NCBI GenBank assembly: GCA_965207535.1 | Contig: CBDBMR010000014.1 | Span: forward strand, 322,463 to 386,462 | DNA: 64,000 nucleotides | Source: Rhodospirillales bacterium | GTDB taxonomy: Bacteria; Pseudomonadota; Alphaproteobacteria; Rhodospirillales; UBA2165 | Direction: 5' to 3' | Shown: in pieces, positions 44,405-62,106 of the stretch | Position numbering within the stretch: the first letter of the stretch is position 1 | Layout of the letters: the number at the start of each line of letters is the position of its first letter | Notes under the pieces: model-generated | The model's input: the letters and a program-made list of their open reading frames with translations, nothing else | Database searches by the model: none | What the model was told of the DNA's origin: nothing | Position numbers and translations under genes: made by a program

Positions 44405-45769
44405 ATGGCAATTGAGACACTCGAAGACAAGATCAACTCGATAGGCAATCCGGTGGATATGCTCCGCAACGCCGCCGCCGGGCCGTACCAGTTTCCCATC
44501 ACCTCCGAGTTCAGCAATTGGCGCGACGAGCAGGAGGCCTGGCGCAACGGCGCGGTCCTGTTCGACCAGTCGTTCCACATGACCGATCTATATGTCGAGG
44601 GTCCGGATACCAGGAAGTTGTGCGAATACCTGGCGGTCAATTCAATGGCCAACTGGCAGCGCGATCTCGCCAAGCAATTCGTTCACTGCACGCCGGATGG
44701 TTATGTGGTTGGCGACGCGATCATATTTATCCTCGAGGAAGACAAGGCCAATATCGTCAACAAACCCAGCAATGCCAACTGGGTGACGTATCACGCCGAG
44801 AAAGAGGGGTTTGACGTCTCCTTCGATCTCGACATGCGCGCACTGGACAACAGGGGACGGCGCAAGGGATACCGGTTTGAAGTCCAGGGTCCCGAAGCCT
44901 GGTCGCTCCTGGAAAAACTGAACGGCGGGCCGATCGAGCAGTTCAAATTCTTCCGGATGGGCGAAATCAACGTGGCCGGCCGGCAGGTACGGGCACTGCG
45001 GCACGGCATGGCCGGCGCAGTCGGCTTGGAACTCTTTGGCCCGTTCGACGACTACGACCTCATCCGCGACGCCATCCTCGAGGCGGGTCAGGAGTTCGGC
45101 ATCAGGGCCGCCGGCTCCAAGACCTATTCGACCGTCGCGCATGAATCCGGATGGTTCCCTTCGCCGCTTCCCGCGATCTATTCCAGCGGCGATCTTGCCG
45201 ATTACCGGCGGTGGCTGCCCGCGACAAGCTTCGAGGCCAACCTGTCATTGGGCGGCTCGTTGGTCAGCGACAACGTGGAGGACTATTACCTCACGCCCTA
45301 CGACCTGGGCTACGGCCATATCGTCAAGTTCGATCATGACTTCATCGGGCGCGATGCGCTGGAGGCGAAAAAGGATCAGCCGCACAGGCACAAGGTGACG
45401 CTTCGGTGGAACAAGGACGATGTGCTGAAGGTGTTTGCTTCCATGTTCAATGAAGGCGACCGGTACAAGTTCCTCGACATACCCGCATCTCACTACGCGA
45501 CCTGCCCCTATGACCTTGTGACCAGGGACGGCAAGCCGGTCGGATTGTCCCACTATCCGGTCTACACATCCAATGTCGCCGGCTGGATTTCCCTGGCCCT
45601 GCTGGATGAGGAAGCGGCCGCCCCCGGCACGGAGGTCTCGTTGACGTGGGGCGAACCGGACGGCGGGACCATGAAACCGGCCGTCGAACGTCACGTTCAG
45701 ACCGAAATTGCCTGCACGGTGGAGCCCTGTCCGATTTCAGTCACGGCGCGGGAAACGTACAGAAAGTAG
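44405..45769 (+). CDS. ligM: THF-dependent aminomethyltransferase-family demethylase (LigM/DesA-like)
   Basis: NPVDMLRN...SEFSNWRDEQEAWRNGAVLFDQSFHM, YRFEVQGP, RHGMAG..GLELFGP, TPYDLGYG. Start ATG 44405. Confidence 0.82.
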   Translation: MAIETLEDKINSIGNPVDMLRNAAAGPYQFPITSEFSNWRDEQEAWRNGAVLFDQSFHMTDLYVEGPDTRKLCEYLAVNSMANWQRDLAKQFVHCTPDGYVVGDAIIFILEEDKANIVNKPSNANWVTYHAEKEGFDVSFDLDMRALDNRGRRKGYRFEVQGPEAWSLLEKLNGGPIEQFKFFRMGEINVAGRQVRALRHGMAGAVGLELFGPFDDYDLIRDAILEAGQEFGIRAAGSKTYSTVAHESGWFPSPLPAIYSSGDLADYRRWLPATSFEANLSLGGSLVSDNVEDYYLTPYDLGYGHIVKFDHDFIGRDALEAKKDQPHRHKVTLRWNKDDVLKVFASMFNEGDRYKFLDIPASHYATCPYDLVTRDGKPVGLSHYPVYTSNVAGWISLALLDEEAAAPGTEVSLTWGEPDGGTMKPAVERHVQTEIACTVEPCPISVTARETYRK

Positions 45770-45779
45770 GGACCGCACC

Positions 45780-47381
45780 TTAACGGTTTTCATCCTCGAG
45801 AATCATATCGCTGGCTTTCTCGGCGATCATCAGCACGGCTGCATTGGTGTTTCCCGATACGATCGACGGCATAACCGACGCATCCACCACTCGCAGCCCG
45901 GCAACACCTCTCAGCCGGCAACGGGGGTCCAAGGGCGCGTCGTCCGCGTCCCCCATGGCTACAGTCCCGACCGGATGAAATATCGTCGTCACCCGTTCCT
46001 TGATCGCCTCCAGCAACTCATCGTCGCCGGCATTTGCCAATTCCGGCTCGGGCCAGACCTCCTCTTCGATCACATCCGACACCGGCGCCAGCCGGCAGAT
46101 CTCCCGCGACCGTTTAAGGCCGTCGACAATCGCTTTCCGATCTCGGTCCGCGGAAAGATAGTTGGCGGTGATGGCAGGCGCCGTCATGGGGTCCGGGCTT
46201 CTTAAACGCACCGTCCCCCGGCTTTCCGGACGTATGGGGCAGATGGAAACCGAGAATCCTGGCCATGGGTGAAAACCCTCGGCCGGATTGTCGCTGCTCC
46301 AAGGCAAGACATGGAACTGAACATCCGGGCGCGCGAGTTCGCCGGAGCTGCGAAGGAAACAAAATACCGGGCCCGCTCCCATGGTCAGCGGACCGCGACG
46401 CCGCAATAGGTATTCGAACCCCATCCCCGCTTTGCCGAAATTGCTGTTCAGACGGCCGTTCAAGGTCGGGATCGATACCCGATAGACATTGTGGAACTTC
46501 AAGTGATCCTGCAGGCCCCGGCCGATACCGGGTGCGTCCAGTACCGTCCGGATTTCGTGAGCCTCCAGATGGTCGGCTTCGCCGATGCCGGAAAGCATCA
46601 ACAAGTGTGGCGAGCCGATGGTACCCGCCGACAAAAGAATTTCCCTGTTGGCGGAAATAATCTCGCCGGCGCCATCCGGACGGCGCAACTCCACGCCCCT
46701 TGCGCGGTTGCCCGCCGTGACGATGCGGGTGACCATCGCGTCCGTCATGACCCTCAAGTTCGGGCGGCCCCGGACCGGATCGAGATAGCCGTGGGCCGCC
46801 GAGACGCGCCGTCCCTTCCAGGTGGTCGTCTGGTAGTAGCCCGTGCCTTCCTGATCGGCACCGTTGCAATCCGGGTTCGCCGGCAGTCCATAGTTCACAG
46901 CGGCTTCACGGAAAAGGTCCGTAATCCGGAATTGGGCCCGGCCGAGCGAAACGCCGATCCGGCCGTCGCCGCCCCGCCATTGGTCATCCCCCTGCTCGTT
47001 CCGTTCGGAACGCTTGAAGTACGGCAGGACGTTCCCGTAATGCCATCCCTCGGCGGCCTGCCCCCAATAATCGAAGTCAGCCTTATGTCCGCGGACGTGG
47101 ATCAATCCGTTGATCGCGCTCGAACCGCCGAGCCCCCGGCCGCGCGGCCAATCCAGCACACGGCCGTTTAGGTGCGGCTCCGGTTCGGTCGTCAGGCACC
47201 AATCGTAGACCGGATCGCCGATGGTTTTGAAATAGCCGATCGGCATCTTGACCCAGGGGCTGCGATTGCGCCCGCCGGCTTCAATCAGCAGCACCCGGCG
47301 ACGGGGATCGCCGCTCAGCCGGTTGGCAAGGACGCAGCCCGCGGTGCCGGCACCGACGACAATGTAATCCCAGTCATCCAT
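45780..47381 (-). CDS. GMC family oxidoreductase (choline dehydrogenase-like)
   Basis: DYIVVGAGTAG, PRGRGLGGSSAING, LQDH, FHPVGT, GNTNA. Confidence 0.92.
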   Translation of the reverse strand: MDDWDYIVVGAGTAGCVLANRLSGDPRRRVLLIEAGGRNRSPWVKMPIGYFKTIGDPVYDWCLTTEPEPHLNGRVLDWPRGRGLGGSSAINGLIHVRGHKADFDYWGQAAEGWHYGNVLPYFKRSERNEQGDDQWRGGDGRIGVSLGRAQFRITDLFREAAVNYGLPANPDCNGADQEGTGYYQTTTWKGRRVSAAHGYLDPVRGRPNLRVMTDAMVTRIVTAGNRARGVELRRPDGAGEIISANREILLSAGTIGSPHLLMLSGIGEADHLEAHEIRTVLDAPGIGRGLQDHLKFHNVYRVSIPTLNGRLNSNFGKAGMGFEYLLRRRGPLTMGAGPVFCFLRSSGELARPDVQFHVLPWSSDNPAEGFHPWPGFSVSICPIRPESRGTVRLRSPDPMTAPAITANYLSADRDRKAIVDGLKRSREICRLAPVSDVIEEEVWPEPELANAGDDELLEAIKERVTTIFHPVGTVAMGDADDAPLDPRCRLRGVAGLRVVDASVMPSIVSGNTNAAVLMIAEKASDMILEDENR

Positions 47382-47395
47382 CAACCACGCAGACG

Positions 47396-47965
47396 TCAGA
47401 TAAAGTGAGGAATTTCCCTTTTGGTCGGCCCAACCGAATAACGCGGGTTCGGTCTTCGGCCGTCCCATCGATCCGCCGTGACGTCCTCCAGAACGACCTG
47501 ATGGTCAAGCGAACGGCCGAGCCTGCCATCCGATAGCGTCGCCCTGTCTCCCGGCACCGAGTTCTCACAGATCACCAGGAAGCCGCGCGGAAGCACCTCA
47601 CCCGAACCGCCGTTCTCCGAGACCAACTCGGATGGCCGGCCAAGCTCGGCGAGTGAATTTCCATTGAGCGCGACGGCATCGAGGTGGCCGCTCAGATTCT
47701 TCAGGCGCCACGCCTTTCGCGCCAGAACGATGCTCCCGGTACTCAACTGCACCACCGGTGAGATGAGTGCGCCGCCGCCCAAAGCGGTGAGCGCATACGT
47801 TGAACTTGCCTGCCCGCCCGGCTCCGCCTGGTGATAGAGCTCGGTTGTCAGAACCGTCAGGGGCATCGGCGTGCCGCCGATAAATATCCGGTCAATCACG
47901 ATGTCCGGCGTGGTGATGTTCCCTTCCGGTCCCTCTACGTGCGGCTTGAATAGAAACAGCGACAT
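47396..47965 (-). CDS. Hypothetical protein
   Basis: 189-aa ORF with GGAG RBS, tightly co-oriented between the beta-propeller and GMC genes. Confidence 0.7.
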   Translation of the reverse strand: MSLFLFKPHVEGPEGNITTPDIVIDRIFIGGTPMPLTVLTTELYHQAEPGGQASSTYALTALGGGALISPVVQLSTGSIVLARKAWRLKNLSGHLDAVALNGNSLAELGRPSELVSENGGSGEVLPRGFLVICENSVPGDRATLSDGRLGRSLDHQVVLEDVTADRWDGRRPNPRYSVGPTKREIPHFI

Positions 47966-47977
47966 TGAAACGTCTCC

Positions 47978-48949
47978 TTACACGGGCGCCCAGGTGATCA
48001 TGCGGATTTCGCCGAGTTCCCGATCCGTCTTTGTCCAGCTTTCGCCGCCGTCCGTGCTTTTGAAAATTTGTCCAAAGATCGTTGCCGCAAAAAGAAGGGA
48101 GGTGTCGGCGGCGTTGGTCCCGATGGACCACAAGGTGCTGTTGGGTTCATGGGACAACGCGCACTCACGCCAGGTTTCCCCGAAATCGCGGCTAATGAGA
48201 AACTGCCCTGCCTCGCCGGAAGGCCTGTCGCCAACCGAAGCAATCACGATAGGAGAGTTCGCCGCCGGCTGTTTGATGCTTCGGAAGTAGTCCCATTTCG
48301 CCAACGGGATACTCAACTGCTCCCACGTCACGCCGTCATCCCGCGATCTGTGGAGCCCATCTTCGGTCGAACAGAGGATTGTTCGTTCGTCACCCTCGTC
48401 GAGGAATGCCAGATCGTGGGTATCATTGTCGTGCAGTCCCTCGATCATCAGCCGCCACGTTTTGCCGCGGTCGTCGGAACGGATTATCCCGTCGATTTCG
48501 ACGGTGATCCAGATCGTATCCTCGTGCTTCGGGTCGAAATGAACCGAGGTCACGCGGGATGTATTGATAAACCAGCACTCGGTTGAAGCGTCCAGATTGG
48601 CCCGCGTCCAGGTCTGTCCGTCATCCTCGGAGATGAAAATTTCACCCGGCCGCGTGCCGCAGGCGATGAAACCCGGATCGTTTGGCGCGCGCGCGATCTG
48701 CAGAATGTGAAGCGAATCCATGGGAGACGGAATGTAGTCGAACCGGCCCTTGTCCTCGGTAAACCGGTAAAGGCCCTGATCGGTCCCCGCCAGCACCTCT
48801 CCGGGTCGAGCAGGGTGGGTGTTGACCGACCAGCATCTCGCTTCGTTGTAAAATCCGCCGGTCGGCGTGGGCAGCCGGTTCCAGCTTGTGCCCTCGTCTT
48901 CGCTGATCCAAACGCTTTGCATCGTGGCCGCATAGGCTTTGTATTTCAC
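47978..48949 (-). CDS. BNR/Asp-box repeat beta-propeller protein
   Basis: Repeated S-x-D-x-G-x-T/S-W boxes: SEDEGTSW, SEDDGQTW, SDDRGKTW, SRDDGVTW, SRDFGETW, STDGGESW. No signal peptide. Start GTG 48949. Confidence 0.85.
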   Translation of the reverse strand: MKYKAYAATMQSVWISEDEGTSWNRLPTPTGGFYNEARCWSVNTHPARPGEVLAGTDQGLYRFTEDKGRFDYIPSPMDSLHILQIARAPNDPGFIACGTRPGEIFISEDDGQTWTRANLDASTECWFINTSRVTSVHFDPKHEDTIWITVEIDGIIRSDDRGKTWRLMIEGLHDNDTHDLAFLDEGDERTILCSTEDGLHRSRDDGVTWEQLSIPLAKWDYFRSIKQPAANSPIVIASVGDRPSGEAGQFLISRDFGETWRECALSHEPNSTLWSIGTNAADTSLLFAATIFGQIFKSTDGGESWTKTDRELGEIRMITWAPV

Positions 48950-48981
48950 AACGCGCTCCCCCGGGCAGTCCAAATCCTCGC

Positions 48982-49001
48982 TGCCCACTTTATCCCACTA
49001 G
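48982..49001. promoter_or_regulatory. Repeated 20-bp upstream motif, copy 2
   Basis: TGCCCACTTTATCCCACTAG, identical to 39137-39156. Confidence 0.65.
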
Positions 49002-49150
49002 ATGAAGTATGCAATCCATGTTATCAGTGATCCGGCCGATTATAATCCAGTTGCGGCTGCGGCATCCAACCACTGGATAACCGGGTGCCGCGGTTCGCTC
49101 GGCCGTCAAGAGGGTCGGATATCGCCCCCGAGCCAAACCAGGACAGCGGA

Positions 49151-49954
49151 ATGATGCAGGTAACATTGCTTGGGACTGGCCTTCCCTTCCCCAACCCGAA
49201 ACGCCGGGGTCCCGGCTATCTCATCCGATGCGGAGAAACCAATTGCCTGGTCGACTGCGGATCCGGCGCGGTCCACCGGTTGGTCGAAGCCGGGAAGATG
49301 GCGCACGACATCGACCACGTTTTCATCACCCACTTGCACTCCGATCACTTCATCGACCTCGGGCACTTCACAATCTGTCATTGGATATATGGAGATGGCC
49401 GCCCTTGGAACCTTTACGGCCCGGAGGGGATAGACGTCATATTCCAGAACCTCCTAGATGCGCTCCGGTCCGATCTCGAACTCCGCAACAAAATCAGAAA
49501 ATCGCCGAAGCCGTTGCCCCAAATCGTGGTTCATGAACTCCGGCAAGGAGAAGCGCTTGAGGAAAACGGGCTGACGGTCAGCGCGTTTGATGTCGAACAC
49601 CAACCTCTTGATCAGCCATTCGGGTATCGATTTGCCACGCGGGACAAAACCGTGATCTTCTCGGGCGACACCTGCCCGTCCGAAAATCTGATCCGTCACA
49701 GCCAGGGGGCGGACGTTCTAATTCACGAATGCGTCGAGTACGACAAGTGGAAGGCGCGGGACATCGATCACGCCCATACCCCTCATGCACATACCTCGCC
49801 GGAACGGCTTGCTTTGTTGGCAAGGGACGCCAATGTGGGACTTCTGGTCACCACCCACATGATGGCGAACTCCGTCCCCCGCGAATTGATGGAAATCATC
49901 CGCCGGGACTATCGGAAGCCGGTGGCCATCGGCGAAGATCTAATGACCGTTTGA
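49151..49954 (+). CDS. MBL-fold metallo-hydrolase (RNase Z/arylsulfatase-like)
   Basis: LLGTG, LVDCG, THLHSDH (HxHxDH), FSGDT, AHTS, TTHM. Confidence 0.9.
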   Translation: MMQVTLLGTGLPFPNPKRRGPGYLIRCGETNCLVDCGSGAVHRLVEAGKMAHDIDHVFITHLHSDHFIDLGHFTICHWIYGDGRPWNLYGPEGIDVIFQNLLDALRSDLELRNKIRKSPKPLPQIVVHELRQGEALEENGLTVSAFDVEHQPLDQPFGYRFATRDKTVIFSGDTCPSENLIRHSQGADVLIHECVEYDKWKARDIDHAHTPHAHTSPERLALLARDANVGLLVTTHMMANSVPRELMEIIRRDYRKPVAIGEDLMTV

Positions 49955-49968
49955 CGGCGGATCGCTCT

Positions 49969-50835
49969 ATGACGGATTTACGCACCTCTTCCTGGTCTCT
50001 GGAGGCCACACTGCCGAAGCCGGCGGAGATCGAGGCTGTGGCGTCGGTCATCGAGGAGGGAACGGAGGTTTTCCTCAGCACACTTCCGCACGTCTCGTTG
50101 GACCAGCAGATCGAAACGGCGCGGATCGTCCGGTCAAACGGGCTCGAGCCGGTTCTCCACATCGCCACTCGGTACTTCGCGACACGGACGGAAATGGTGG
50201 GATACCTCGCGCGCGCCAACCAGGAGGCGGAGGTCTCCAGAGTACTCGTCATCGGCGGCGACCTGCATCCGCCCCGCGGCGAATTCGATTCCGCACTGGC
50301 ATTCATCAAGAGCGGATTGGCTTCCGACTACGGCATCAAGAGGATTGGCGTCGCCGGATATCCGGAAGGACATCCGAAAATTCCTGATGCCACGCTTTGG
50401 ACCGAAATGGGGGAGAAATTGGCTTCCGCCCGGGCGCAAGGATTGGATTTCGAGATCGTGACCCAGTTCTGCTTTAGTCCCGACGCCATCGTGGACTGGC
50501 TCGACGACACCTGGGAGCGCTGGCCCGGGACGCATGTGCGTCTCGGCTTCGCGGGACCGGCCTCCGCAAAGTCGATTCTGCGTTACGCATTAAGGTGCGG
50601 CGTGAAGACCCCGAAAAGCGGACTGGGTCACAAGCTTACGGCGGCCTCTCGATTGGCAAAGAATCACGACCCGGCGCCGTCAATTGTGGCGGTCGGGGAT
50701 GCCATTCGGCAAAAATCAGGCTCGGCGTCCGTTCATTTGTTCTCCTTCGGCGGAGTTGAAAACACGGTGCGCTGGATGAACCGCGGTCTCGGGTCATCAC
50801 GCTCGGCGGACCGCGATCCCCAGGCCTACGCTTAA
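49969..50835 (+). CDS. metF: Methylenetetrahydrofolate reductase-like protein (short alphaproteobacterial type)
   Basis: SLE, PVLHIA, VIGGD, GVAGYPEGHP, IVTQFCF, GFAGPAS...LRYALRCGV. Confidence 0.8.
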   Translation: MTDLRTSSWSLEATLPKPAEIEAVASVIEEGTEVFLSTLPHVSLDQQIETARIVRSNGLEPVLHIATRYFATRTEMVGYLARANQEAEVSRVLVIGGDLHPPRGEFDSALAFIKSGLASDYGIKRIGVAGYPEGHPKIPDATLWTEMGEKLASARAQGLDFEIVTQFCFSPDAIVDWLDDTWERWPGTHVRLGFAGPASAKSILRYALRCGVKTPKSGLGHKLTAASRLAKNHDPAPSIVAVGDAIRQKSGSASVHLFSFGGVENTVRWMNRGLGSSRSADRDPQAYA

Positions 50836-50897
50836 TCCATCTTATGGGACTAGGGTTCGAATCCATGGATTGGTGGCCGAAACGGCCGGGAAAGAAC

Positions 50898-50925
50898 GGT
50901 GGCCCCGGCAGGACTCGAACCGGCA
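50898..50925 (-). other. Degenerate tRNA 3'-half-like fragment (T-arm plus acceptor strand)
   Basis: Minus strand TGCCGGTTCGAGTCCTGCCGGGGCCACC has a GTTCGAGTCC T-loop and an ACC(G) end. No 5' half, D-arm or anticodon arm is found upstream. Confidence 0.45.
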
Positions 50926-50980
50926 GGCAACGAACCAAGATGTTCATCCGCGCCGTGGTTTCATCAAAACATGACCCGAT

Positions 50981-51838
50981 CTAGCGGTTGCTTTCGGCCT
51001 TTTTCAGAAAGGCCGCAAGTATCCCGGCAAGCCGCGGTTCCGCGTCACGCCATTCTTGAACGTCCCATTCCTGCAGCAATTGGTCCTCGGGCAGAATTCT
51101 TACCACGCCTTCGTGCAATTCGCCGTTGGGCAAAAGGTTCACCGTTTTTCGCGCTGTCTCCGGGGTATGGACAACGTCGTTCCCCGCGACCAGGCAGACA
51201 GGGCAACTTATGGCATTAAGTTGTTCCTCCGTGGCCCCGACGATAGGCAGCAAGGCCGATTTCAGGAACGCCTCACGCCAAATTTCCATCGCCTCGATGA
51301 AGGCGTCGACGTCCATCCCCAGGATGTATTCCCGGTTCGACGGCCGGGCTGCAATGAGCTCGGCGAAATGCTCGGATTCGGCGACGGCTTCCATGCCGCC
51401 CTCTCTGGCGAGTTCGATGTACTGGCCGTAGTAGTTCTGAGATAACCGGTCGACGGCGTGTTGGCCACCGGTCACCCGCCAGAGCAGAAGGCCCGAAAGC
51501 GCTTCCGGATGACGGATGGCAAACAGGATGGCGAGCCGTGCGCCCGAGGAAGATCCGCCGACATAGAGTTTCTCCTCACCCAGGTAATTTGCCAGGGCAT
51601 GCAAGTCATCGGCCCAGAGCGCATACTCGGACTCCGAGCCCCCAAAAACCACATCCGACTTGCCGCAATTGCGGCGGTCATGGAGCAGCACGCGATAGCC
51701 GTGGGCGGCTACGGTTTTCGATAAATCAACAAGTTCGTCGAAGGACCGGCGGCTACCCGGCGTCAACGCGACAAGCGGCCCGCCATCGCCGATGATTTCG
51801 TAATTTATGTAAATTCCCTGGAGATTGGCTTCAGGCAT
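50981..51838 (-). CDS. Alpha/beta hydrolase
   Basis: HDRRNCGKS, GGSSSG nucleophile elbow, AGNDVVH. Confidence 0.85.
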   Translation of the reverse strand: MPEANLQGIYINYEIIGDGGPLVALTPGSRRSFDELVDLSKTVAAHGYRVLLHDRRNCGKSDVVFGGSESEYALWADDLHALANYLGEEKLYVGGSSSGARLAILFAIRHPEALSGLLLWRVTGGQHAVDRLSQNYYGQYIELAREGGMEAVAESEHFAELIAARPSNREYILGMDVDAFIEAMEIWREAFLKSALLPIVGATEEQLNAISCPVCLVAGNDVVHTPETARKTVNLLPNGELHEGVVRILPEDQLLQEWDVQEWRDAEPRLAGILAAFLKKAESNR

Positions 51839-51929
51839 ATTTCCTGTCCTTCGAGTTGATCGGTTCCGAAGCTGACTACTCCCCGGATTGCAAATTACAT
51901 TGAGCCGGTCAGTGGTGCCGCTCCTTGCG

Positions 51930-52475
51930 CTAAGGCTTCAGTGGCGACTCCCCGTCGGGCAGTATTTCGAAACAATTGAGTACCATGGCGACATAATTGT
52001 AGTAGCCGAGAACACCGATCAGTTCGACCAACCCCTGTTCACCGAGCTCGTCCAATGCGGCCTGATAGGTATTGGCGCTGACCCGGTGATTTTCCATTAA
52101 CTCCATGGCCAGGTTATAGACGACTTCCTCGTCGCGGTTGACAAAGTGAGGGCGCTGCCGCGCTTCAATGGCGTCGGCGATCGCCGGATCGAGGCCGGCC
52201 TTCAGCGCCAGCGGATGGTGGGCCCACCATTCGATCTGCGCGGTCCATCTCCTGGACACCAGCAGAATAGTGAATTCGGTGATCCGGTCGGGGAGGCTGG
52301 AAGAGAAGCGCAGGAAGGCGCCGACCTTCTGGCTGAGGTCGCCGAGCTCCGGACTGCGAAACCAAGGGATCATTGGCCCCGCGATACGCCCGCGCGGCCC
52401 CGACATGACGTTGTCGTACATTTCCTTCTGGGCTGGGGTCATCTGCTCGAGGGGGATCGGCTCCATCCGTGCCAT
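51930..52475 (-). CDS. Carboxymuconolactone decarboxylase/AhpD-like protein
   Basis: GPMIPWFRSPEL, EWWAH, ELIGVLGYY. Confidence 0.85.
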   Translation of the reverse strand: MARMEPIPLEQMTPAQKEMYDNVMSGPRGRIAGPMIPWFRSPELGDLSQKVGAFLRFSSSLPDRITEFTILLVSRRWTAQIEWWAHHPLALKAGLDPAIADAIEARQRPHFVNRDEEVVYNLAMELMENHRVSANTYQAALDELGEQGLVELIGVLGYYNYVAMVLNCFEILPDGESPLKP

Positions 52476-52524
52476 TCAAGAACTCCTTTCTGTTCTGAAT
52501 TGCGGTCAATTTCGTTTCTCGTGC

Positions 52525-54022: not shown

Positions 54023-54257
54023 GGTTATGGTGGTTCCATCGTGTTGCCTCGAAAACAAACTCGAGCCTGGTGTCTCGCGGGGCGCCATACCTGCATTGGT
54101 CTGCCGTCAAAACGCCAGCTGTTTTAACGGTCTCCGCCGCAACGGACAATCCCCGTCCACTATTTCGGGCTCTCCCGGTCCGGTGTGCCACGGATCGCCA
54201 CGGAAACTCGTGTCTCAACAGGCGGGCGCATAAATATTTGACGAGGATTTTATTCTG

Positions 54258-54303
54258 ACATATAAGTTAATTAGGTGAAAATTCACTTAATTAACTTATA
54301 TGT
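54258..54303. promoter_or_regulatory. 46-bp near-perfect AT-rich palindrome containing GTGAAAATTCAC
   Basis: ACATATAAGTTAATTAGGTGAA-aa-TTCACTTAATTAACTTATATGT, 22-bp arms with one mismatch, 15 bp upstream of the monooxygenase start. Confidence 0.8.
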
Positions 54304-54318
54304 TGGATTGGCAAGGAA

Positions 54319-55962
54319 ATGACGAAGATTGATACACCCATTCTGATTGCGGGCGGCGGTCCCGTCGGCATGTTGCTGGCCATGGAATTGGCGGACAAGG
54401 GCGTTAAGTTTCTCCTGGTCAATGATCAGCCGACCACCCGAGCGCATCCTCAGGCCGGGACCATCAACAGCCGGACGATGGAACATTTTCGACGCCTGGG
54501 GTTATCGGAAGAAATTCGAAAGACAGGTTTGCCCATGGATCATCCCGCCGACAGCGTTTACGTAACACGGATTGCCGAGTTTGAACTGCTGCGGCATGAA
54601 ATGCCCACCCTGCGCGAGAAAATCGGCAATCCCGGCCCCTGGGGAGAGACCAAACTGACGCCTGAGCCGATTCATCGATCCAACCAGCGGCACTTTGAAC
54701 CGCTCATGTATGAACGCATCACATCGACCGATTGCGCCGATGTTCGGTTTGGCTGGCGGCTCGTCTCGTTTGAGGACAGGGGCGATCACGTCATTGCCCA
54801 AATTGAGCAAATGGAAACCGGTCATCTGGAGAGGATCAGCTGCCGCTATCTCGTCGGCTGTGACGGGGCGAAGGGCCCGGTCAGGAGGTCGCTCGGTATC
54901 AAGTACAGCGGTCGCAGCAGTTCCGAATCGGCATTTTACGATGGGCGGATGTTGTCGATATTCGTGAAGTCCGATGAGATCGCTGCTTCCGCCAATATGA
55001 AAAATGCCTGGCACTACTGGACAATCAACTCGAAGGGCAGAACCGACTTCATCACGCTGAACGGGGCCGGAGAGTATATGGTACTTGCCGAAGTCCGTTC
55101 AGACGCACCTCTGGATGAACTGGATGTCCGCGGCATAGTGTCGAACGCCGTCGGCGCGGATGTGGATTTCGAGGTTGCTTCGGTCCGCGAATGGCTCGCC
55201 GGTTTGGCGGTGGTCGCGGACGAGTATCAGCGGGGCCGCGTGTTCTTGGCGGGTGATGCCGTCCATCTGTTCACGCCTTCCGGCGGCTTTGGCTTCAATA
55301 CAGGCGCGGACGATGCTGCCAACCTGGGTTGGAAACTTGCCGCCGTAGTTCAGGGCTGGGCGCCGCCCGCCCTCCTCGACAGTTATGAAATTGAACGCCG
55401 GCCGATCGGCAAACGGAACACCGGTGTTTCCGGCAGGTACGCCGGTATGATCGCCAAATTGGAGTTCGATGAAACCATCGAGAAGAATTCCGCCGAAGGC
55501 GAGGCGGCGCGCGACGTCCTCCGCGGAGAGTTGAAGCATTTCAAAGAGGAATTTGCCAGCATGGGAATCGTCCTTGGCGCCCGATATGACGGCTCCCCCC
55601 TTATCATCGCAGATGGCACCACACCGCCGGAAGACGATCCGGCGATCTACACCCCTAGCCCGACCCCAGGCGGCCGGACCCCTCACTATTGGATTGACGA
55701 AAAATCGTCGCTTTTCGATGAATTGGGACCGTGGTTCACCCTTCTCAAGATGGGCTCGGCGGCGCCCGATACGTCCAAGCTGGAGAAGGCGGCGGGGGAA
55801 CTTGGGGTCCCACTGAAGGTTCTCCAGGTTGAGGAGGGTGGTATCGTGAATCTGTATGAACAGCCTTTGGCCCTGGTGCGCCCCGATCACTATCTCGCCT
55901 GGCGGGGAAACTCGGTGCCCGGAGATTCAAAGGGAGTCCTGACCAAGGTGATCGGGGGATGA
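54319..55962 (+). CDS. FAD-dependent aromatic monooxygenase (PheA/TfdB-like)
   Basis: IAGGGPVG, LVGCDGA, LAGDAVH..TPSGGFGFNTG..DAANLGWKL, LVRPDHYLAW. Confidence 0.92.
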   Translation: MTKIDTPILIAGGGPVGMLLAMELADKGVKFLLVNDQPTTRAHPQAGTINSRTMEHFRRLGLSEEIRKTGLPMDHPADSVYVTRIAEFELLRHEMPTLREKIGNPGPWGETKLTPEPIHRSNQRHFEPLMYERITSTDCADVRFGWRLVSFEDRGDHVIAQIEQMETGHLERISCRYLVGCDGAKGPVRRSLGIKYSGRSSSESAFYDGRMLSIFVKSDEIAASANMKNAWHYWTINSKGRTDFITLNGAGEYMVLAEVRSDAPLDELDVRGIVSNAVGADVDFEVASVREWLAGLAVVADEYQRGRVFLAGDAVHLFTPSGGFGFNTGADDAANLGWKLAAVVQGWAPPALLDSYEIERRPIGKRNTGVSGRYAGMIAKLEFDETIEKNSAEGEAARDVLRGELKHFKEEFASMGIVLGARYDGSPLIIADGTTPPEDDPAIYTPSPTPGGRTPHYWIDEKSSLFDELGPWFTLLKMGSAAPDTSKLEKAAGELGVPLKVLQVEEGGIVNLYEQPLALVRPDHYLAWRGNSVPGDSKGVLTKVIGG

Positions 55963-56046
55963 CTCAAGCCGGCCCCGCAACAGGGCACGAAATTTCACTA
56001 ATTCGGGCCGCCTTGCAGGCGCGCCTGAAACATGGAGGTCAGAATA

Positions 56047-57027
56047 GTGTCTGAAACAATGAGAGCCATCCAAGTGACCGAGTTTGGCGGCCCCGAGGTT
56101 CTGAAACTCGTCGAGGTGCCAGTACCTGATCCGGGCGATGACGGTGTCCTCGTGAAACAAGCCGCCGCGGGAATAAACTATGCGGACGTCTACCAAAGAG
56201 AAGGCAGGAGTGGCGGCACGCCGCCTTTCATTATCGGCCGGGAGGGTGCCGGCACTGTCGTGGCGGTGGGAAGGAATGTGTCCGGTGTTGCCGTGGGCGA
56301 CCTTGTCTCCTACAGGGGTCCCAAACCGGGCGGCTTTTCCGAATACGTCGTTGCGTCGCCCAACCTGCTATTCAAGGTGCCGGACGGAATCTCGCCGCTT
56401 CAGGCGACCGCCATCCAGGTCCAGGGTATGACGGCCCACTATCTGAGCCATGACGTGTTCGAAATCAAAGAGGGTCACACCTGTCTTGTCCACGCCGGTG
56501 CCGGGGGTGTGGGTCACATTCTGATACAGATCGCCAAGGCCAAGGGAGCCACCGTGTTCACCACGGTCGGCAGCGCCGAAAAGGCGGATTTGTCAAGTTC
56601 CTATGGCGCCGACGAAGTCATTTTGTACCGCGAGCAGGACTTTGCGGAGATCGTTCTTGAAAAAACCGATGGAGAGGGCGTCAATGTCGTTTATGACGCG
56701 ATCGGCAAGACAACCATTGAGGGCTCCATAAAATCGGTTGGTTTTCAGGGCACCGTGGCCCTCTACGGAGATGCGTCGGGGCAGACGCCGCCCGTCGACA
56801 CCAAGCTTCTCGGTGAAAAATGCAGCTACCTGACCCGCGTGGGGCTTCCGCACTTCACCCGCAGCGACGAGGAGGTTGCCCGCCGCTGCAGTGATTTGGT
56901 TGATCTCATCAAGGCCGGCAAGCTCAATTTGAATATCGCCGAACCGTGGCCGCTGGAAAAGGCCGCCGAGGCCTTTGCGGCGCTTGAAGGCAGGCAAACG
57001 ACCGGCAAGCAAATCCTACAACCCTAA
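56047..57027 (+). CDS. NADPH:quinone oxidoreductase (zeta-crystallin MDR family)
   Basis: FGGPEVL, GINYAD, GMTAHYL, HAGAGGVG, TTGK. Confidence 0.92.
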   Translation: MSETMRAIQVTEFGGPEVLKLVEVPVPDPGDDGVLVKQAAAGINYADVYQREGRSGGTPPFIIGREGAGTVVAVGRNVSGVAVGDLVSYRGPKPGGFSEYVVASPNLLFKVPDGISPLQATAIQVQGMTAHYLSHDVFEIKEGHTCLVHAGAGGVGHILIQIAKAKGATVFTTVGSAEKADLSSSYGADEVILYREQDFAEIVLEKTDGEGVNVVYDAIGKTTIEGSIKSVGFQGTVALYGDASGQTPPVDTKLLGEKCSYLTRVGLPHFTRSDEEVARRCSDLVDLIKAGKLNLNIAEPWPLEKAAEAFAALEGRQTTGKQILQP

Positions 57028-57109
57028 CCGGACCAACCTTGACGCGCCAACGGCGGCAACGCGGCGGCGATGGGCCCCGGCCGAAAGAAACGAGATCGTG
57101 GAAAATTCA

Positions 57110-58249
57110 ATGGACCCTACGAAAACCGTCAAAACTCCAGTGGGGGCAGTCATCGAGCCAACCTACGATGTGTCGGACGTGCCGCCACATTACGATGTGC
57201 CGACGCCGGACTTTTGCGCTCTAGACGGCCCGGTGCGCCTGGATTCGAATGAATCGGCTTTCGGCACGTCGAAGGCCGCCCAAGAGGCCTACGCTGGGTG
57301 CCCTGATCTCCATCGTTATCCCGACATCGGTGCCAAATCGCTGCGGGAAGCCCTGGCAAGACACCATGGCCTAGATGCCGACAGAATTATCCCCGGCGCC
57401 GGCTCCGGCGAGGTGATCCACAGCCTCGGACATGCCTACCTTTGCCCCGGAGACGAGGTCATCTTTTCGCAACGTACGTTCGGCGCCTACAACGTCATCT
57501 CCCGCCTTAATGGCGCCACGCCCGTTCCCATTCCAGAGCTTGATTGGACGGCGAATCCGGCCGGGATGGTGGACGCCATGAATGACCAAACGCGGTTGCT
57601 TTGCTTGGCCAATCCCGACAATCCGACCGGAACTTATTTGGACGAAACCGACGTCCGCGCGCTTCTGGCCACATTGCCGCGGCACGCAATATTGCTGCAT
57701 GACGAAACCTACAGCGAGTTTGCGACTCAGTCCGACTTCCCGGACGGCCTTGGTTTGGTCGATGAGTTTGAGAATGTAGTTGTCACGCGGACATTCTCGA
57801 AGATATTCGGGCTCGCGGGGTTGCGGCTGGGTTGGGCATATGCCTCGCCGGCCATCGCCGACGCTCTGCGCCGCTACAAGGGTCCCTTTAATGTCTCGAC
57901 GCCGTCTGAGGCCGCGGCAGTGGCAGCGCTTGCCGACACAGAGTTCGTAAATCGAGCAATCAAGCACAATAAAATTTGGCGTGAGCGACTTGCAACGGAG
58001 TTTTCCAAATTGGGTCTAGCGGTCCCCGAAAGTGCGTCCAACTTTGTCATGATTATTTTCCCTGACCATCCGGGCAAATCCGCAACCGATGCTCAGAAGT
58101 TCCTTGTCGACAGGAACATCTTTCTGCGCCCATTGGCCGGGTGGGGGATCCCACAGGCCATTAGAATGACAATTGGAACCGAGGAAGAAAACACGCACGT
58201 ATTGGCAACGCTGACTGAATTCATGGAACTGAACCGCCTTGTCGAGTAG
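57110..58249 (+). CDS. hisC: Histidinol-phosphate/aromatic aminotransferase (class I/II PLP)
   Basis: LDSNES, RYPD, ANPDNPTG, HDETY, RTFSKIFGLAGLRLGW. Confidence 0.8.
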   Translation: MDPTKTVKTPVGAVIEPTYDVSDVPPHYDVPTPDFCALDGPVRLDSNESAFGTSKAAQEAYAGCPDLHRYPDIGAKSLREALARHHGLDADRIIPGAGSGEVIHSLGHAYLCPGDEVIFSQRTFGAYNVISRLNGATPVPIPELDWTANPAGMVDAMNDQTRLLCLANPDNPTGTYLDETDVRALLATLPRHAILLHDETYSEFATQSDFPDGLGLVDEFENVVVTRTFSKIFGLAGLRLGWAYASPAIADALRRYKGPFNVSTPSEAAAVAALADTEFVNRAIKHNKIWRERLATEFSKLGLAVPESASNFVMIIFPDHPGKSATDAQKFLVDRNIFLRPLAGWGIPQAIRMTIGTEEENTHVLATLTEFMELNRLVE

Positions 58250-58321
58250 GGCATGAGAGCCTTCCAATTTGTCAGTGTTGTGCCGCTCAGTGGCGAGCGA
58301 CTCCAGCATTCTTGATTTAAA

Positions 58322-58333
58322 GTGAATATTCAC
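58322..58333. promoter_or_regulatory. GTGAAWATTCAC palindrome upstream of the MetE-like gene
   Basis: tttaaaGTGAATATTCACttaaaa. Confidence 0.65.
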
Positions 58334-58442
58334 TTAAAATTCTTTACAGCCCACGGGCTAAGGTGGCTGGAATTAGTTCGTTCATACCTCTTGGCCACGT
58401 TGTTGCTGACGACTATTGGCAATCTGGTCGGGGGATCAATCT

Positions 58443-59552
58443 ATGAATCAGGGACGCTCGCTACCGCCTTACAGAGCCGATCATGTTGGCAGCCTGCTAA
58501 GACCTCATAGGCTCAGCGAAGCCCGAGCGGACTGTTCGGCCGGCAGGATTTTGGCTGACGATCTTCGAGAAATAGAAGATGAGTGCATTGCCGAAGCGGT
58601 CGCCAAGCAAGAACGGATAGGGCTGAATTCGGTAACAGACGGTGAGTTCCGTCGTGAGTCGTGGCACTACGATTTCTTGGGTAGCCTGGAGGGGATTGAT
58701 GTTACCGGTGTTCATCAGGGTCCCGCGTTCCAATCTGGATCTACCGCCAAATCCATTTGCACCACTGGCGTCATCCGGAACCCCGATGGGGTCATGATTG
58801 ACCACTTTAAGTATCTGAATGATATCAGCAGCGTAACCGCAAAATTCTGTATACCCTCGCCAAGCTTGGCCCACTATCGCGGCGGTCGCGACCTGATTGA
58901 CGATACCCTCTACCCTGATCTCACCCAATTTTGGGACGATCTTTGCGCGGCGTACCGAGACGAAGTCACCTACCTGGTAAGAGCCGGATGTCGATATCTG
59001 CAGTTTGACGACACGACTTTCGCCATGCTTTGCGACCCCAATATTCGAAAATATGTGGCCGACCGGGGAGACGACCCAGTCGAGCTGGTCTCCACCTATG
59101 CCAGAAGCATCAAGGGCGCGCTCTCGGAACGGCCACCTGAACTGACAGTTGCCGTTCACATGTGCCGCGGTAACTTCAAGAGTTCGTGGGTGGCTGAAGG
59201 CGGCTATGAGCCAGTCGCCGAGACCATGTTTGCCGAAGTTCCGGTGGATGGGTTCTTTATGGAATGGGATTCGGACCGAGCTGGAGGGTTTGAGCCATTG
59301 AGGTTCGCACCAAGGGACAAGATCATCGTCCTGGGTCTAGTCAGCTCCAAGTATCCCGAGCTGGAATCCAAAGACGACTTAAAGCGCCAGATCGACGAGG
59401 CGGCAAAATACGTACCGATTGAAAATCTGTGCCTCAGTCCACAGTGTGGTTTTGCAAGTATGGCCATTGGAAATGACATAAACCAAGACAGCCAATGGCG
59501 AAAACTTGAGCTCGTTGTTGAGACGGCAGCCGAGGTTTGGGGAGAGGCTTGA
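58443..59552 (+). CDS. Single-domain cobalamin-independent methionine synthase II-like (YxjH/core MetE) Zn protein
   Basis: ADHVGSLLRP, TDGEFRR, YLQFDDT, HMCRGN, FMEWD, SPQCGFAS (His/Cys/Glu/Cys Zn ligands). About 369 aa, i.e. only the C-terminal barrel. Confidence 0.88.
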   Translation: MNQGRSLPPYRADHVGSLLRPHRLSEARADCSAGRILADDLREIEDECIAEAVAKQERIGLNSVTDGEFRRESWHYDFLGSLEGIDVTGVHQGPAFQSGSTAKSICTTGVIRNPDGVMIDHFKYLNDISSVTAKFCIPSPSLAHYRGGRDLIDDTLYPDLTQFWDDLCAAYRDEVTYLVRAGCRYLQFDDTTFAMLCDPNIRKYVADRGDDPVELVSTYARSIKGALSERPPELTVAVHMCRGNFKSSWVAEGGYEPVAETMFAEVPVDGFFMEWDSDRAGGFEPLRFAPRDKIIVLGLVSSKYPELESKDDLKRQIDEAAKYVPIENLCLSPQCGFASMAIGNDINQDSQWRKLELVVETAAEVWGEA

Positions 59553-59790
59553 GGGGAGTCTCAGGATGACTTTATCCCCGGACCGACTTCGAAAATGATC
59601 CAGGAGGCGGCACAGCACCGATTTCTGGATTGACAGTCCTATGGTCCCAAACCTTTATACCGGACAGGTCTAACCAGGATGGAGCGCCGCGTTACCTGCA
59701 ATGTGCCTTCGCCCGTGGTGCAATTTCCTGGCGATCTCCGCGATGCGTTCACGTACCCATTTGTGAAACGGCGAGTGGTGGGTGAAAAAA

Positions 59791-59825
59791 GTGAATATTT
59801 ACCTATATTTTATGTGAAAATTAAC
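59791..59825. promoter_or_regulatory. Two degenerate GTGAAWATTCAC sites upstream of the orphan dctP
   Basis: GTGAATATTTAC (59791-59802) and GTGAAAATTAAC (59814-59825). Confidence 0.55.
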
Positions 59826-59912
59826 ATAGTATTCTCCTGTCAAGGAATGCAAATTCAATAATTGGCCGGACCTCTTGAAAGGACCGACCAAAATCACTTG
59901 GAGGTGAATACA

Positions 59913-60947
59913 ATGATTATCAGAGGATTGTTGGCTGGCCTTATCGGCCTCGGAGCCGTGCTGACAGCAGACACGAGTCATGCAGCCGAACGGTGGACAT
60001 GCAATATCTTTGGTGGCCCAAAACACTTCATCCAAAAGGTGCTGAGAGACTGGTCCAAGGACGTCAAACAAGCGACGAGTGGCGAGGTCGACATCAGATT
60101 TCTGCCGTCAAATGCGGCACCGCCGCCAAAACAGTTGGACGGTATCGTTGCCGGCACCTATGACTGTGCCTTCATATTCCACGCTTTCACCACCAGGAAA
60201 GCAATTGGACCGCAGTTCGGCATATTGCCTTTCATCGGTCCCGCTGATGCCTCGAAAGGTTCAATTGCCTTTCAACGAACCTGGAAAAAGCACTTTGCTG
60301 CCAAAAAGGAATTTGCGGATGATGGTCTCCATGTCTTGACCATGTTCCAATTTTCCGGCGTCCAGATTTACACTGCACGAAGCAAGCCGATCGATTCGGT
60401 TGAGGATCTAAAGAGCCAAAAGGTCTGGGCTCTTGCCGGCACGTCCTCCCGGACAATGAAGTCTTTGGGCGTCAGTCATGTCTCAGGCCCTGCCGCGCGA
60501 CTGGCTGAGTTCACCCAGACCAAGGTCGTACAAGGCCTTGTCGGTGCTTCGCCGTATATTGTGGCCGCTTTCGCAGGTATGCAGTTTCCAAGGTATGGAA
60601 CCAACACCAGTAAATCTCTAATGCTGCCGTCCTTCGGGTTGAAGGTTGGATCCAAAAAGTGGGATGCGCTGCCGGGTGAGACAAAACGGCAGGTAATGTC
60701 GGCGTCCGGGGAAAAGCTGGCAGCCGTTATCGGGCAGGCTTCAGAATCTGCCGAAGGAGTTGTACGAACCAAGCTTACAGCTGCTGGCGTCAAACATATC
60801 TCGGCGTCGAAAGAGTTCGAAGCCAGTCTGGTCAAAGCAGCGCGTCCCCAGATTGAAGCCTGGGTGCAGCAGGTAAAGGGTATTGGCGTCGACGGAAATC
60901 AGGTCATCAAAGATTACATAAGAATAGTCAACGAACTCGGTTCTTAA
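59913..60947 (+). CDS. dctP: Orphan TRAP substrate-binding protein (DctP family)
   Basis: Signal peptide, ATSGEVDI, DLKSQKV. No permease genes adjacent. Confidence 0.8.
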   Translation: MIIRGLLAGLIGLGAVLTADTSHAAERWTCNIFGGPKHFIQKVLRDWSKDVKQATSGEVDIRFLPSNAAPPPKQLDGIVAGTYDCAFIFHAFTTRKAIGPQFGILPFIGPADASKGSIAFQRTWKKHFAAKKEFADDGLHVLTMFQFSGVQIYTARSKPIDSVEDLKSQKVWALAGTSSRTMKSLGVSHVSGPAARLAEFTQTKVVQGLVGASPYIVAAFAGMQFPRYGTNTSKSLMLPSFGLKVGSKKWDALPGETKRQVMSASGEKLAAVIGQASESAEGVVRTKLTAAGVKHISASKEFEASLVKAARPQIEAWVQQVKGIGVDGNQVIKDYIRIVNELGS

Positions 60948-61089
60948 GTATCGACCTGTTCTGTAGTGGCAAAATGAGGGCGAGGATGCCCGGCAACAGA
61001 GCTGGAAGCCGGCAGAGATACCGCTGAGCTTTTGGAGCACGGCTCAAGCTAGGTTGTCCCGAACGTCGCGCGTATGCCGGACCAGTCGG

Positions 61090-62106
61090 TCAATCGAGGT
61101 TGAAGACTCCTCTGGCGTTTAGCTCGTAAAATTTGTCGGGATCTCCGAGGGTGATCTCGCTCGCCTGATTTACCTGTTGGGTAGAGTCGTCGTAGGGGTA
61201 GTCCACAGCGAACATGAGCCGATCCTCTCCCACGACCTCCTCCGTGAAGCGAACGGCGGGACCCCAATTGTGACCCGAACTCGAAAGCCAGAAGTTTTCT
61301 TTGAAGTATTCACTTGGAATACGCTCGCAACGCCAATGTGGATAGGCGTCAAATCCTGCACGGTTGTATGAAAACATGCGGTCAATCCGATCAAGCCAAA
61401 ACGGTATGCCCTCTCCGAGATGCCCTAGAACAATCCTCAAACCGGGATGGCGATCGAATACCCCGGTTACAATCATTCGAAGCGCGTGCACCGCGGTTTC
61501 TGTCTGAAACCCCCATAACGCTCCTTCCAGGTGTCGTTCCGCCATCGGGCCCATCATTGCAGGAGATGCCGGACGCGGATGAATGTAGAGAGGTAACTCC
61601 AGAGCCTCGATGGCCTCTAGCAATGGCCGAAATGCAAGGCCATCCAGATATTCGCCCTTGGTGTGCGAGTTGACCATAACGCCCTTTAGGCCGAGCGCTT
61701 TGGCGCGCTCAATTTCTTTCGCGGCGGTCTTGGGCGCCTGAGGCGCAACACTAGCCAATCCCGCAAATCTCTCGGGACGAGCCGCTACCGACTCCGCTAG
61801 TATTTCATTAGCCTCTGTAGCCAAATTGCTGCCTGTGTCGGCGTCGAACACCTGAACGCCCGGTGAGGTAAGGGCAATTACCTGCAAATCCACGCCTGAT
61901 TTATCCATATCCTCCAGCCGCAAGGGACCGAGATCGAGCAAACGCTTCTTGATCTCCGCGCCCCGACCTTTTGGGCTCATGACCAGTCGGTTTAGGTGGT
62001 GATCCAGGCCCGGCTCACCAACCGCGCCATCGTTCAGCAGATCCTGCCAAGCGTTCACGACGGACTTTGTGACAAATGCTTCTTCTACGGCGATCTTCTT
62101 GGGCAT
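61090..62106 (-). CDS. Amidohydrolase-2 family aromatic acid decarboxylase (LigW-like)
   Basis: IAVEEAF, LTSPGVQ, ANE..A..V..RPERFAGL, LYIHP, LGHLGEGIPF, FAVDYPY. Confidence 0.82.
   Translation of the reverse strand: MPKKIAVEEAFVTKSVVNAWQDLLNDGAVGEPGLDHHLNRLVMSPKGRGAEIKKRLLDLGPLRLEDMDKSGVDLQVIALTSPGVQVFDADTGSNLATEANEILAESVAARPERFAGLASVAPQAPKTAAKEIERAKALGLKGVMVNSHTKGEYLDGLAFRPLLEAIEALELPLYIHPRPASPAMMGPMAERHLEGALWGFQTETAVHALRMIVTGVFDRHPGLRIVLGHLGEGIPFWLDRIDRMFSYNRAGFDAYPHWRCERIPSEYFKENFWLSSSGHNWGPAVRFTEEVVGEDRLMFAVDYPYDDSTQQVNQASEITLGDPDKFYELNARGVFNLD

Follow-up and report, generated by a model that had tools for sequence, protein, structure and literature searches.

The sequence analyzed here was a stretch of 64,000 nucleotides (hereafter the window) that is part of contig C14 of a sponge-associated Rhodospirillales genome (4.2 Mb, 98.6% complete). 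Its closest public relatives were metagenome-assembled genomes labelled "Rhodospirillales bacterium", and sponge metagenomes were among the sources carrying its DNA. Window genes were called from an open reading frame (ORF) listing together with Pfam and NCBIfam scans, and the closest solved relatives were taken from the PDB. Four genes lying within 18 kb were central to the analysis: a LigM-like demethylase dependent on tetrahydrofolate (THF), a homologue of methylenetetrahydrofolate reductase (MTHFR), a single-domain MetE-like protein and a LigW-like decarboxylase (Table 1). A preliminary description of the window had assembled them into one dispersed, lignin-type demethylation and decarboxylation kit with a possible methyl sink. 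The location and family of each gene were borne out by the Pfam, NCBIfam and PDB matches. Their union in a single kit was not, and the preferred reading, with a probability of about 65%, is that these 18 kb hold two independent catabolic units that are neighbors by chance in one genome.

The first unit (module A, 36-51 kb) encompassed the LigM-like and MTHFR-like genes, and the second (module B, 53.5-63.5 kb) the MetE-like and LigW-like genes. Each displayed its own predicted operator. The module A motif was a direct repeat, CCCAYT-N4-5-CCCAYT, found in the window at 39108, 39139, 44330 and 48984, and four of its six hits in the 4.2 Mb genome fell in module A. More than 30 loci of other taxa had the same repeat as well, 30-80 bp ahead of the LigM-like gene and also in front of the flanking operons. 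The module B motif was the palindrome GTGAAWATTCAC, with island sites at 54275, 58322, 59791, 59814, 62325 and 62337. It gave 11 matches over two strands at seven places (0.5 expected), six of these places being inside the island, and its three exact copies genome-wide were all in module B. No GTGAAWATTCAC site was found near the LigM-like or MTHFR-like genes. The two motif sets did not overlap, and each was essentially confined to its own module across the genome.

Comparison with relatives separated the same two units. Same-genus comparisons covered five congeners for the DNA search and six for LigW-like and MetE-like orthologues, and 80 loci encoding LigM-like relatives were collected for neighborhood comparison. 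The window segment 44240-49082 was syntenic in the five congeners, with DNA matches of 87 to 92% identity, while the segment 52800-62480 gave paralogue-level matches at best. The intervening segment 50981-52798 was found elsewhere in congeners, 900 kb off in a closed chromosome. No LigW-like orthologue was obtained in the six congeners (family-level search, E<=1e-110), nor, besides the window's own, in a class-wide search of 300 genomes at E<=1e-120. Orthologues of the LigW-like (63-68% identity) and MetE-like (66-70%, in other genera only) proteins from other genera had different neighbors and were not linked to one another, being on different contigs. None of the 80 loci (0/80) harbored a MetE-like, LigW-like or hydroxylase gene beside the LigM homologue. 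Module B is probably a strain-specific island under predicted MarR control.

The genome is rich in aromatic-catabolic paralogues, with 24 Amidohydro_2 genes, 8 LigB-type dioxygenases and about 10 VanA_C Rieske oxygenases, and it also encoded about 11 single-domain MetE-like proteins, 3 MTHFRs and 1 LigM-type protein, its sole THF-dependent O-demethylase of this type. The chance that a gene lies within 17.7 kb of a random point was 0.18 for Amidohydro_2, 0.09 for MetE-like genes and 0.025 for MTHFR. With paralogues in such numbers, the proximity of the Amidohydro_2 (LigW-like) and MetE-like genes to the LigM-like gene was unremarkable. The MTHFR-like gene was the only unexpected neighbor of the LigM-like gene, and the only one syntenic in relatives.

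Table 1. Features of the window and their coordinates, counted from its first nucleotide (a dot marks sites listed without a strand).
Feature	Start	End	Strand	Remark
Module A left arm	36062	44245	-	Pfam + NCBIfam
Two module A operator repeats ahead of the isochorismatase operon	39108	39154	+	predicted
Module A operator repeat within the divergent RidA/LigM promoter	44330	44346	+	predicted
LigM/DesA-family THF-dependent aryl O-demethylase homologue, 454 aa	44405	45769	+	GCV_T fold
Module A right arm: GMC oxidoreductase, 189-aa protein without family, BNR/Asp-box propeller	45780	48988	-	
Module A operator repeat separating the BNR and MBL/MTHFR-like operons	48984	48999	+	predicted
MBL-fold (RNase Z-like) gene	49085	49954	+	14 bp upstream of the MTHFR-like gene
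Type 4 (S6MTHFR-like) MTHFR homologue, predicted methyl-THF oxidizer	49969	50835	+	best PDB match 7xg9
Dispersed intergenic repeat, 37 nt	50948	50984	+	at the break in synteny that sets module A apart
MarR-family regulator, may bind the module B boxes	53573	54088	-	
Module B box GTGAAWATTCAC, MarR/hydroxylase promoter	54275	54286	.	predicted
Operon: FAD aromatic-ring hydroxylase (PRK06126), NADPH:quinone reductase-like enzyme, HisC-type aminotransferase	54319	58249	+	
Module B box	58322	58333	.	110 bp before the start codon of the MetE-like gene
Single-domain MetE homologue (YxjG / PDB 1YPX type), 369 aa	58443	59552	+	Meth_synt_2
Two module B boxes ahead of the DctP gene	59791	59825	.	predicted
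DctP-type TRAP solute-binding protein	59862	60947	+	preceded by two module B boxes
LigW-like non-oxidative (hydroxy)aromatic acid decarboxylase, 338 aa	61090	62106	-	Amidohydro_2; ATG at 62106
Pair of adjacent module B boxes in the LigW-like/TAXI intergenic region	62325	62348	.	predicted
TAXI-type TRAP solute-binding protein	62444	63487	+	divergent from the LigW-like gene

The LigM-like protein matched PF01571 (134 bits) and was about 55% identical to LigM (PDB 5x1i/5tl4; 493 bits, residues 5-453). Aligned to 5x1i, it kept Tyr29, His60 and Tyr247, and had Phe in place of Tyr31. Kohler et al. are said to have shown in 2017 that Tyr247 of LigM is catalytic and that His60, Tyr29 and Tyr31 lie in the substrate site. 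Scores were below both NCBIfam equivalog cut-offs, for LigM (571.4; cut-off 580) and for DesA (598.6; cut-off 800). Among 10 representative homologues scanned, two reached the LigM cut-off, both outside the window's clade, and none the DesA cut-off. In a quick maximum-likelihood run in IQ-TREE, cluster-linked LigM-like proteins (51 rows) formed a supported clade apart from sphingomonad and other homologues. Judged from its sequence, the window's protein belongs to an uncharacterized subfamily tied to a conserved gene cluster.

The MTHFR-like protein gave a weak hit to the Pfam MTHFR model and a match of 164 bits (E 6e-47) to the 288-aa 7xg9, the SYK-6 enzyme described as a methyl-THF-oxidizing "type 4" MTHFR (PMC11868366). 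In the 7xg9 alignment it kept Glu21, Asp107 and Gln175, which are catalytic in S6MTHFR, and Leu48-Pro49, which blocks NADH (PMC11868366), as well as Cys219 and Phe269-Gly-Gly. Pro268 and Arg78 have also been reported as conserved in type 4 MTHFR (PMC11868366). Both positions varied (P/T/S/A/C, and R/N/S/K/L among others, respectively) in 16 other MTHFR homologues located within 10 kb of a LigM homologue, so that the natural family extends beyond the published type 4 signature. As a separate observation, the Pro268 position was often Thr, the residue of ordinary MTHFRs, at loci L035, L037, L045, L066, L067 and others.

The MTHFR-like gene was found 4.2 kb from the LigM-like gene and diverged from the module A operator site at 48984. 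The MBL-fold (metallo-beta-lactamase-fold) gene preceding it had no counterpart at the same position in any relative. At L003, an intact MTHFR homologue (88% identity) directly followed the BNR gene and the operator site. Remnants of 29 to 70 codons were located after the BNR gene in other congeners (L001:13071-13157; L002:14685-14810, identical with L106:11453-11578; L004:4359-4571), and no MTHFR-like gene was present at this position in L005/G006. Decay of the gene seems to be under way in this genus. A 26-32% identical MTHFR homologue was encoded elsewhere on the chromosome in six of the eight complete cluster-bearing genomes, and the more distant LigM homologues often had an MTHFR homologue 1-2 kb downstream. 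The type 4 residues, the operator site and the synteny after the BNR gene upheld the earlier suggestion of a LigM-like demethylase served by a short, methyl-THF-oxidizing MTHFR, and the predicted passage from the LigM-like enzyme through methyl-THF to MTHFR is well supported.

The remaining one-carbon (C1) genes were dispersed. As the preliminary description had stated, no formate-THF ligase (FTHFS) gene was present in the window; the single genomic copy was located at C16:611929. The genome search for ligH, folD and purU found FTHFS and PurU on C16 and FolD on C17, all outside the window, and the canonical MetF-MetH pair on C4. A divergent MTHFR gene was also observed immediately upstream of PurU (C16:653622-655413, equivalent to L115:8572-10420), near a molybdopterin oxidoreductase. 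Its product scored 129 bits on Pfam and was neither of the S6 type nor close to E. coli MetF. It was ruled out as a second type 4 enzyme, 7xg9 not being among its PDB matches, and this MTHFR-PurU pair may be a second C1-oxidation module.

Module A is a widely conserved regulon, with an operator predicted in silico and a conserved set of about 12 genes. Its left arm began with a CrtO/CrtI-like FAD oxidoreductase, an enoyl-CoA hydratase (crotonase), an isochorismatase-family hydrolase, a 4-oxalocrotonate tautomerase (4-OT) and a short-chain dehydrogenase/reductase (SDR), and continued with an ADP-forming acyl-CoA synthetase, a 473-aa protein without family (the candidate regulator) and a RidA/YjgF-like protein. 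Left-arm genes accompanied the LigM-like gene, with their order kept, in about 35 loci of several orders. The conserved set went with LigM-like homologues of at least about 62% identity and was found in Rhodospirillales, Paracoccaceae, Hoeflea and beta/gamma-proteobacteria. The GMC oxidoreductase was optional: its gene (45780-47468) behaved as an indel, present in the window and G001/L002 and absent from L001, L003, L004, G002 and G005. The window acyl-CoA synthetase shared three Pfam domains with the characterized feruloyl-CoA synthetase FCS1 (PMC6388921).

In module B, the best solved relatives of the LigW-like protein were LigW and LigW2 (283 bits to 4inf/4qrn). The Mn ligands Glu19, His188 and Asp314 were kept, together with all five pocket residues (Arg58, Phe212, His241, Arg252 and Tyr317); these positions are known from LigW and from modelled binding of 5-carboxyvanillate (PMC8187880, PMC6031855). 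A substrate of the hydroxy-isophthalate type is plausible given this full pocket. The two solute-binding proteins of the tripartite ATP-independent periplasmic (TRAP) type, at 59862 and 62444, were observed to lack membrane partners of their own.

The MetE-like protein matched NCBIfam PRK06520 with 455 bits (cut-off 313) and PDB 1ypx with 324 bits. It kept equivalents of the zinc ligands His618, Cys620, Glu642 and Cys704 and of the homocysteine-binding residues Ser411, Glu462 and Asp577, positions that were invariant in 25 relatives. Folate determinants were lost: the N-terminal folate/polyglutamate barrel was absent, and in a pairwise alignment of 27 bits to T. maritima MetE the pterin-binding Glu583 was replaced by Met, DMV by Ser-Trp-His, Arg493 by Thr and Trp539 by Tyr (residue roles from PMC539065). 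With zinc and homocysteine residues kept and folate determinants lost, the protein is probably a zinc-dependent homocysteine S-alkyltransferase that alkylates an amino-acid thiol from a non-folate donor. Being predicted not to bind methyl-folate in the manner of MetE, it would not be a sink for the methyl-THF of the LigM-like enzyme. The proposed methyl routing was thus retained as far as the MTHFR, and its last leg, from methyl-THF to a thiol acceptor through the MetE-like protein, is disfavored by the missing folate barrel, the loss of Glu583, DMV and Arg493, and the canonical MetF-MetH pair on C4.

YxjG-type genes were present in 2 to 16 copies in all 24 sampled genomes of the host's family; of 16 further families in the order, only 2 had them. 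Three such paralogues were located within 11 kb on C15:287145-298009 (L110). No DUF1852 (MesX) gene adjoined the window's MetE-like gene, which was flanked by the aminotransferase and DctP-type genes. A Pfam tally of 84 ORFs near the other MetE-like paralogues displayed no constant partner family, and neighbors were heterogeneous. Two alkyl-sulfatase genes (MBL + Alkyl_sulf_dimr + Alkyl_sulf_C) and two Rieske genes were observed within about 7 kb of paralogues at L107-L114. When the closeness of MetE-like genes to Amidohydro_2, VanA_C and LigB genes was assessed by permutation, the signals were only weak and were uncorrected.

Under the preferred reading of two units, the acyl-CoA synthetase, crotonase and SDR of module A would probably process, by analogy with the hydroxycinnamate pathway of Agrobacterium fabrum, the side chain of a methoxylated aromatic acid. 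The LigM-like enzyme, given its homology and its kept Tyr247, would move the O-methyl group to THF, and the type 4 MTHFR homologue, given its signature residues, would oxidize methyl-THF to methylene-THF. The C1 unit could then be taken by FolD, PurU/FTHFS or MetH, encoded elsewhere in the genome. Module B, probably under MarR control, would handle a carboxylated hydroxy-aromatic compound with two TRAP-type binding proteins, the LigW-like decarboxylase, the flavin hydroxylase, the quinone reductase and the HisC-type aminotransferase. Its YxjG-type MetE homologue is predicted to bind zinc and a homocysteine-like amino-acid thiol, and not methyl-folate as MetE does.

Several points weigh against this reading. 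Both operators and their regulators are predicted assignments made in silico. The substrate of module A is not fixed by homology, a methoxylated aromatic acid being only the probable one by analogy, and the module A crotonase did not match feruloyl-CoA hydratase/lyase models. The MTHFR homologue departed from S6MTHFR at both of the reportedly conserved positions (Pro268 to Ser, Arg78 to Tyr, along with Phe215 to Tyr; Arg77 was kept). It was decaying in several congeners, and two of the eight complete cluster-bearing genomes gave no match to it, so that the coupling between LigM and MTHFR is facultative. The folate residues of the MetE-like protein were compared through the 27-bit alignment.

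Other points bear on the separation itself. Every residue of the 5-carboxyvanillate pocket was kept, so the LigW-like product could be vanillate, usable by LigM-type enzymes, and a metabolic hand-over between modules A and B could occur. Of the 11 MetE-like paralogues in the window's genome, two had a VanA_C gene no more than 5 kb away (uncorrected p ~0.02). In G017 (L122:4888-10338) and G024 (L120), genes for a VanA-like Rieske oxygenase, a TauD/TfdA dioxygenase and a LigW-like decarboxylase shared an operon that was convergent with a thiolase-like gene and a distant 394-aa Meth_synt_2 gene; in the same two genomes the orthologue of the window's MetE-like gene was convergent with another VanA-like gene. 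Given this weak recurrence of Meth_synt_2 near LigW-like and VanA-like genes, the MetE-like protein may serve methoxy-aromatic metabolism.

The latter point leads to the most probable of the alternatives, although itself unlikely: that the MetE-like protein is a folate- and cobalamin-independent demethylase, transferring a methoxy, methylthio or methylsulfonium methyl of the module B substrate to homocysteine or another amino-acid thiol. The zinc and homocysteine residues being invariant and the folate residues lost, the gene's own module B box, and the expansion of its family in every sampled genome of the host's family are all consistent with it. Paralogues adjoined VanA-like Rieske and LigW-like genes in G017/G024, two did likewise in the window's genome, and the unrelated Bmt/BHMT enzymes have known direct donors (PMC12366255). 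However, the literature on YxjG/YxjH and core MetE enzymes yielded no defined methyl donor for any member of the subfamily, YxjG/YxjH being described there as putative methionine synthases only. The neighbor families of the paralogues were heterogeneous, the associations were weak and uncorrected for multiple testing, and the adjacency in G017/G024 was convergent rather than operonic. The extension to the whole set, whereby the YxjG-type homologues of the host's family would be substrate-specific demethylases needing neither folate nor cobalamin and transferring methyl directly to homocysteine or a related amino-acid thiol, is an equally tentative and rather unlikely proposal. If true, the donor would be a methoxy- or methylthio-aromatic acid imported via the module B binding proteins, and the copy at 58443 would be the first of YxjG type in a defined regulon, alongside a LigW-like decarboxylase.

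Somewhat less probable is a loose hand-over, in which module B would decarboxylate a 5-carboxyvanillate-like acid and the separately regulated module A demethylate the product, the MetE-like protein being uninvolved. The LigW pocket, including both arginines, agrees with such a substrate, and the LigM-like gene, with the LigW-like gene physically near, is the only one in the genome for a THF-dependent O-demethylase. Nevertheless, the flavin hydroxylase and quinone reductase of module B could consume the decarboxylation product themselves, and five of six congeners retained module A without a close LigW-like orthologue. No biphenyl pathway gene that would yield 5-carboxyvanillate was identified among the annotated genes, and ligX, ligZ and ligY were not evident among those of the island, no search with LigX, LigZ or LigY sequences having been made.

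It is improbable that the MetE-like protein is a spare or condition-specific methionine synthase paralogue placed in the island by chance: the NCBIfam subfamily is named methionine synthase and many paralogues are in unrelated contexts, yet the gene carried its own copy of the island operator, and about 11 methionine synthases are hard to justify with MetH already present. Highly improbable, finally, is the one lignin-type kit, where LigW would convert 5-carboxyvanillate to vanillate, LigM demethylate it, MTHFR oxidize methyl-THF and the MetE-like protein pass methyls from methyl-THF to a thiol, for although the four homologies are real, the LigW pocket is fully kept and the genes lie within 18 kb, the operators differ between modules, the island had no counterpart in the DNA search of five congeners and close LigW-like or MetE-like orthologues none in six, co-location was absent from the 80 loci and orthologues are unlinked, the MetE-like protein lacks folate determinants with MetH present, and 24 and about 11 paralogues make the proximity unremarkable.

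Other features of the window were also recorded. GC content fell to 52-55% at 58-64 kb from 58-62% at 40-50 kb, which favors the reading of two units. ARAGORN found no tRNA within 44-64 kb. The 37-nt repeat at the synteny break had 45 copies in the genome (<=4 substitutions) and dozens per congener; a string resembling the T-arm/acceptor end of a tRNA adjoined it at 50948-50984, where ARAGORN called no tRNA. Further upstream, the segment 20098-30038 harbored a full TRAP set (DctP-DctM), a tripartite tricarboxylate transporter (TTT) set (TctC-TctA) and a sulfatase.

The pairing of a demethylase with a methyl-THF-oxidizing MTHFR, recently described in lignin-degrading sphingomonads, is now predicted in a marine sponge-associated lineage, where it is looser, with the MTHFR gene decaying in some congeners and the demethylase subfamily tied to a conserved 12-gene regulon. 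For annotation, proximity alone defines no pathway where a genome holds dozens of Amidohydro_2 and MetE-like paralogues; operator motifs and synteny separated the two units cleanly. The most interesting lead is the expanded set of MetE homologues, competent for zinc and homocysteine and incompetent for folate, in aromatic-catabolic islands.

Compared with YxjG/YxjH (1YPX) and MesA-D (Price et al. 2021, PMC7857596), the window's MetE-like protein is likewise a lone C-terminal MetE barrel devoid of a folate-binding domain, sharing the residues that bind homocysteine and the zinc ligands (His-x-Cys, Glu and Cys). It differs in having neither MesX (DUF1852) nor a corrinoid protein as neighbor, and its gene is in an aromatic catabolic island with a predicted operator of catabolic type, in a lineage with up to 16 paralogues. 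LigW and LigW2 (PDB 4qrn, 4icm) are about 45% identical to the LigW-like protein, and the three Mn ligands and five pocket residues are common to both; the window gene differs in having no biphenyl (DDVA) pathway gene evident next to it, in being beside TRAP binding proteins, a flavin hydroxylase and a predicted MarR operator, and in being one of 24 Amidohydro_2 paralogues.

The closest characterized analogue of module A is, by its predicted enzymes, the SpG8-1b cluster of Agrobacterium fabrum (Atu1415-1422; PMC7797058). Its hydroxycinnamate pathway uses a CoA ligase, a hydratase, a dehydrogenase, a LigM homologue and an MTHFR homologue, the same enzyme set in two differently regulated units, with an SDR-type dehydrogenase and a LigM homologue 56% identical to LigM (PMC7797058). 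In contrast, the window ligase has the ADP-forming architecture of FCS1, no thiolase or thioesterase was recognized in module A, and the module adds an isochorismatase-type hydrolase, 4-OT, a CrtO-like flavoenzyme, a RidA-like protein, a BNR propeller and two proteins without family. The candidate regulator is neither of GntR nor of MarR type, and its predicted operator is the CCCAYT direct repeat.

The ligM-metF-ligH operon of SYK-6 (Sphingobium lignivorans; Yu et al. 2025, PMC11868366) likewise has a LigM-family demethylase near a short MTHFR. The two MTHFRs share Leu48-Pro49, Cys219, Phe269-Gly-Gly and the catalytic Glu/Asp/Gln, and the same flow from O-methyl to methyl-THF and methylene-THF is predicted. 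However, the window genes are not one operon, three minus-strand genes and the MBL-fold gene lying between them, and no FTHFS gene is nearby. The window demethylase is below the LigM and DesA cut-offs, and in the MTHFR Pro268 is replaced by Ser and Arg78 by Tyr. With a canonical MetF-MetH pair in the window's genome, the supply of methyl-THF is independent of demethylation, unlike in SYK-6. The link between LigM and a type 4 MTHFR is a known kind of system; the lineage and the gene context are new.

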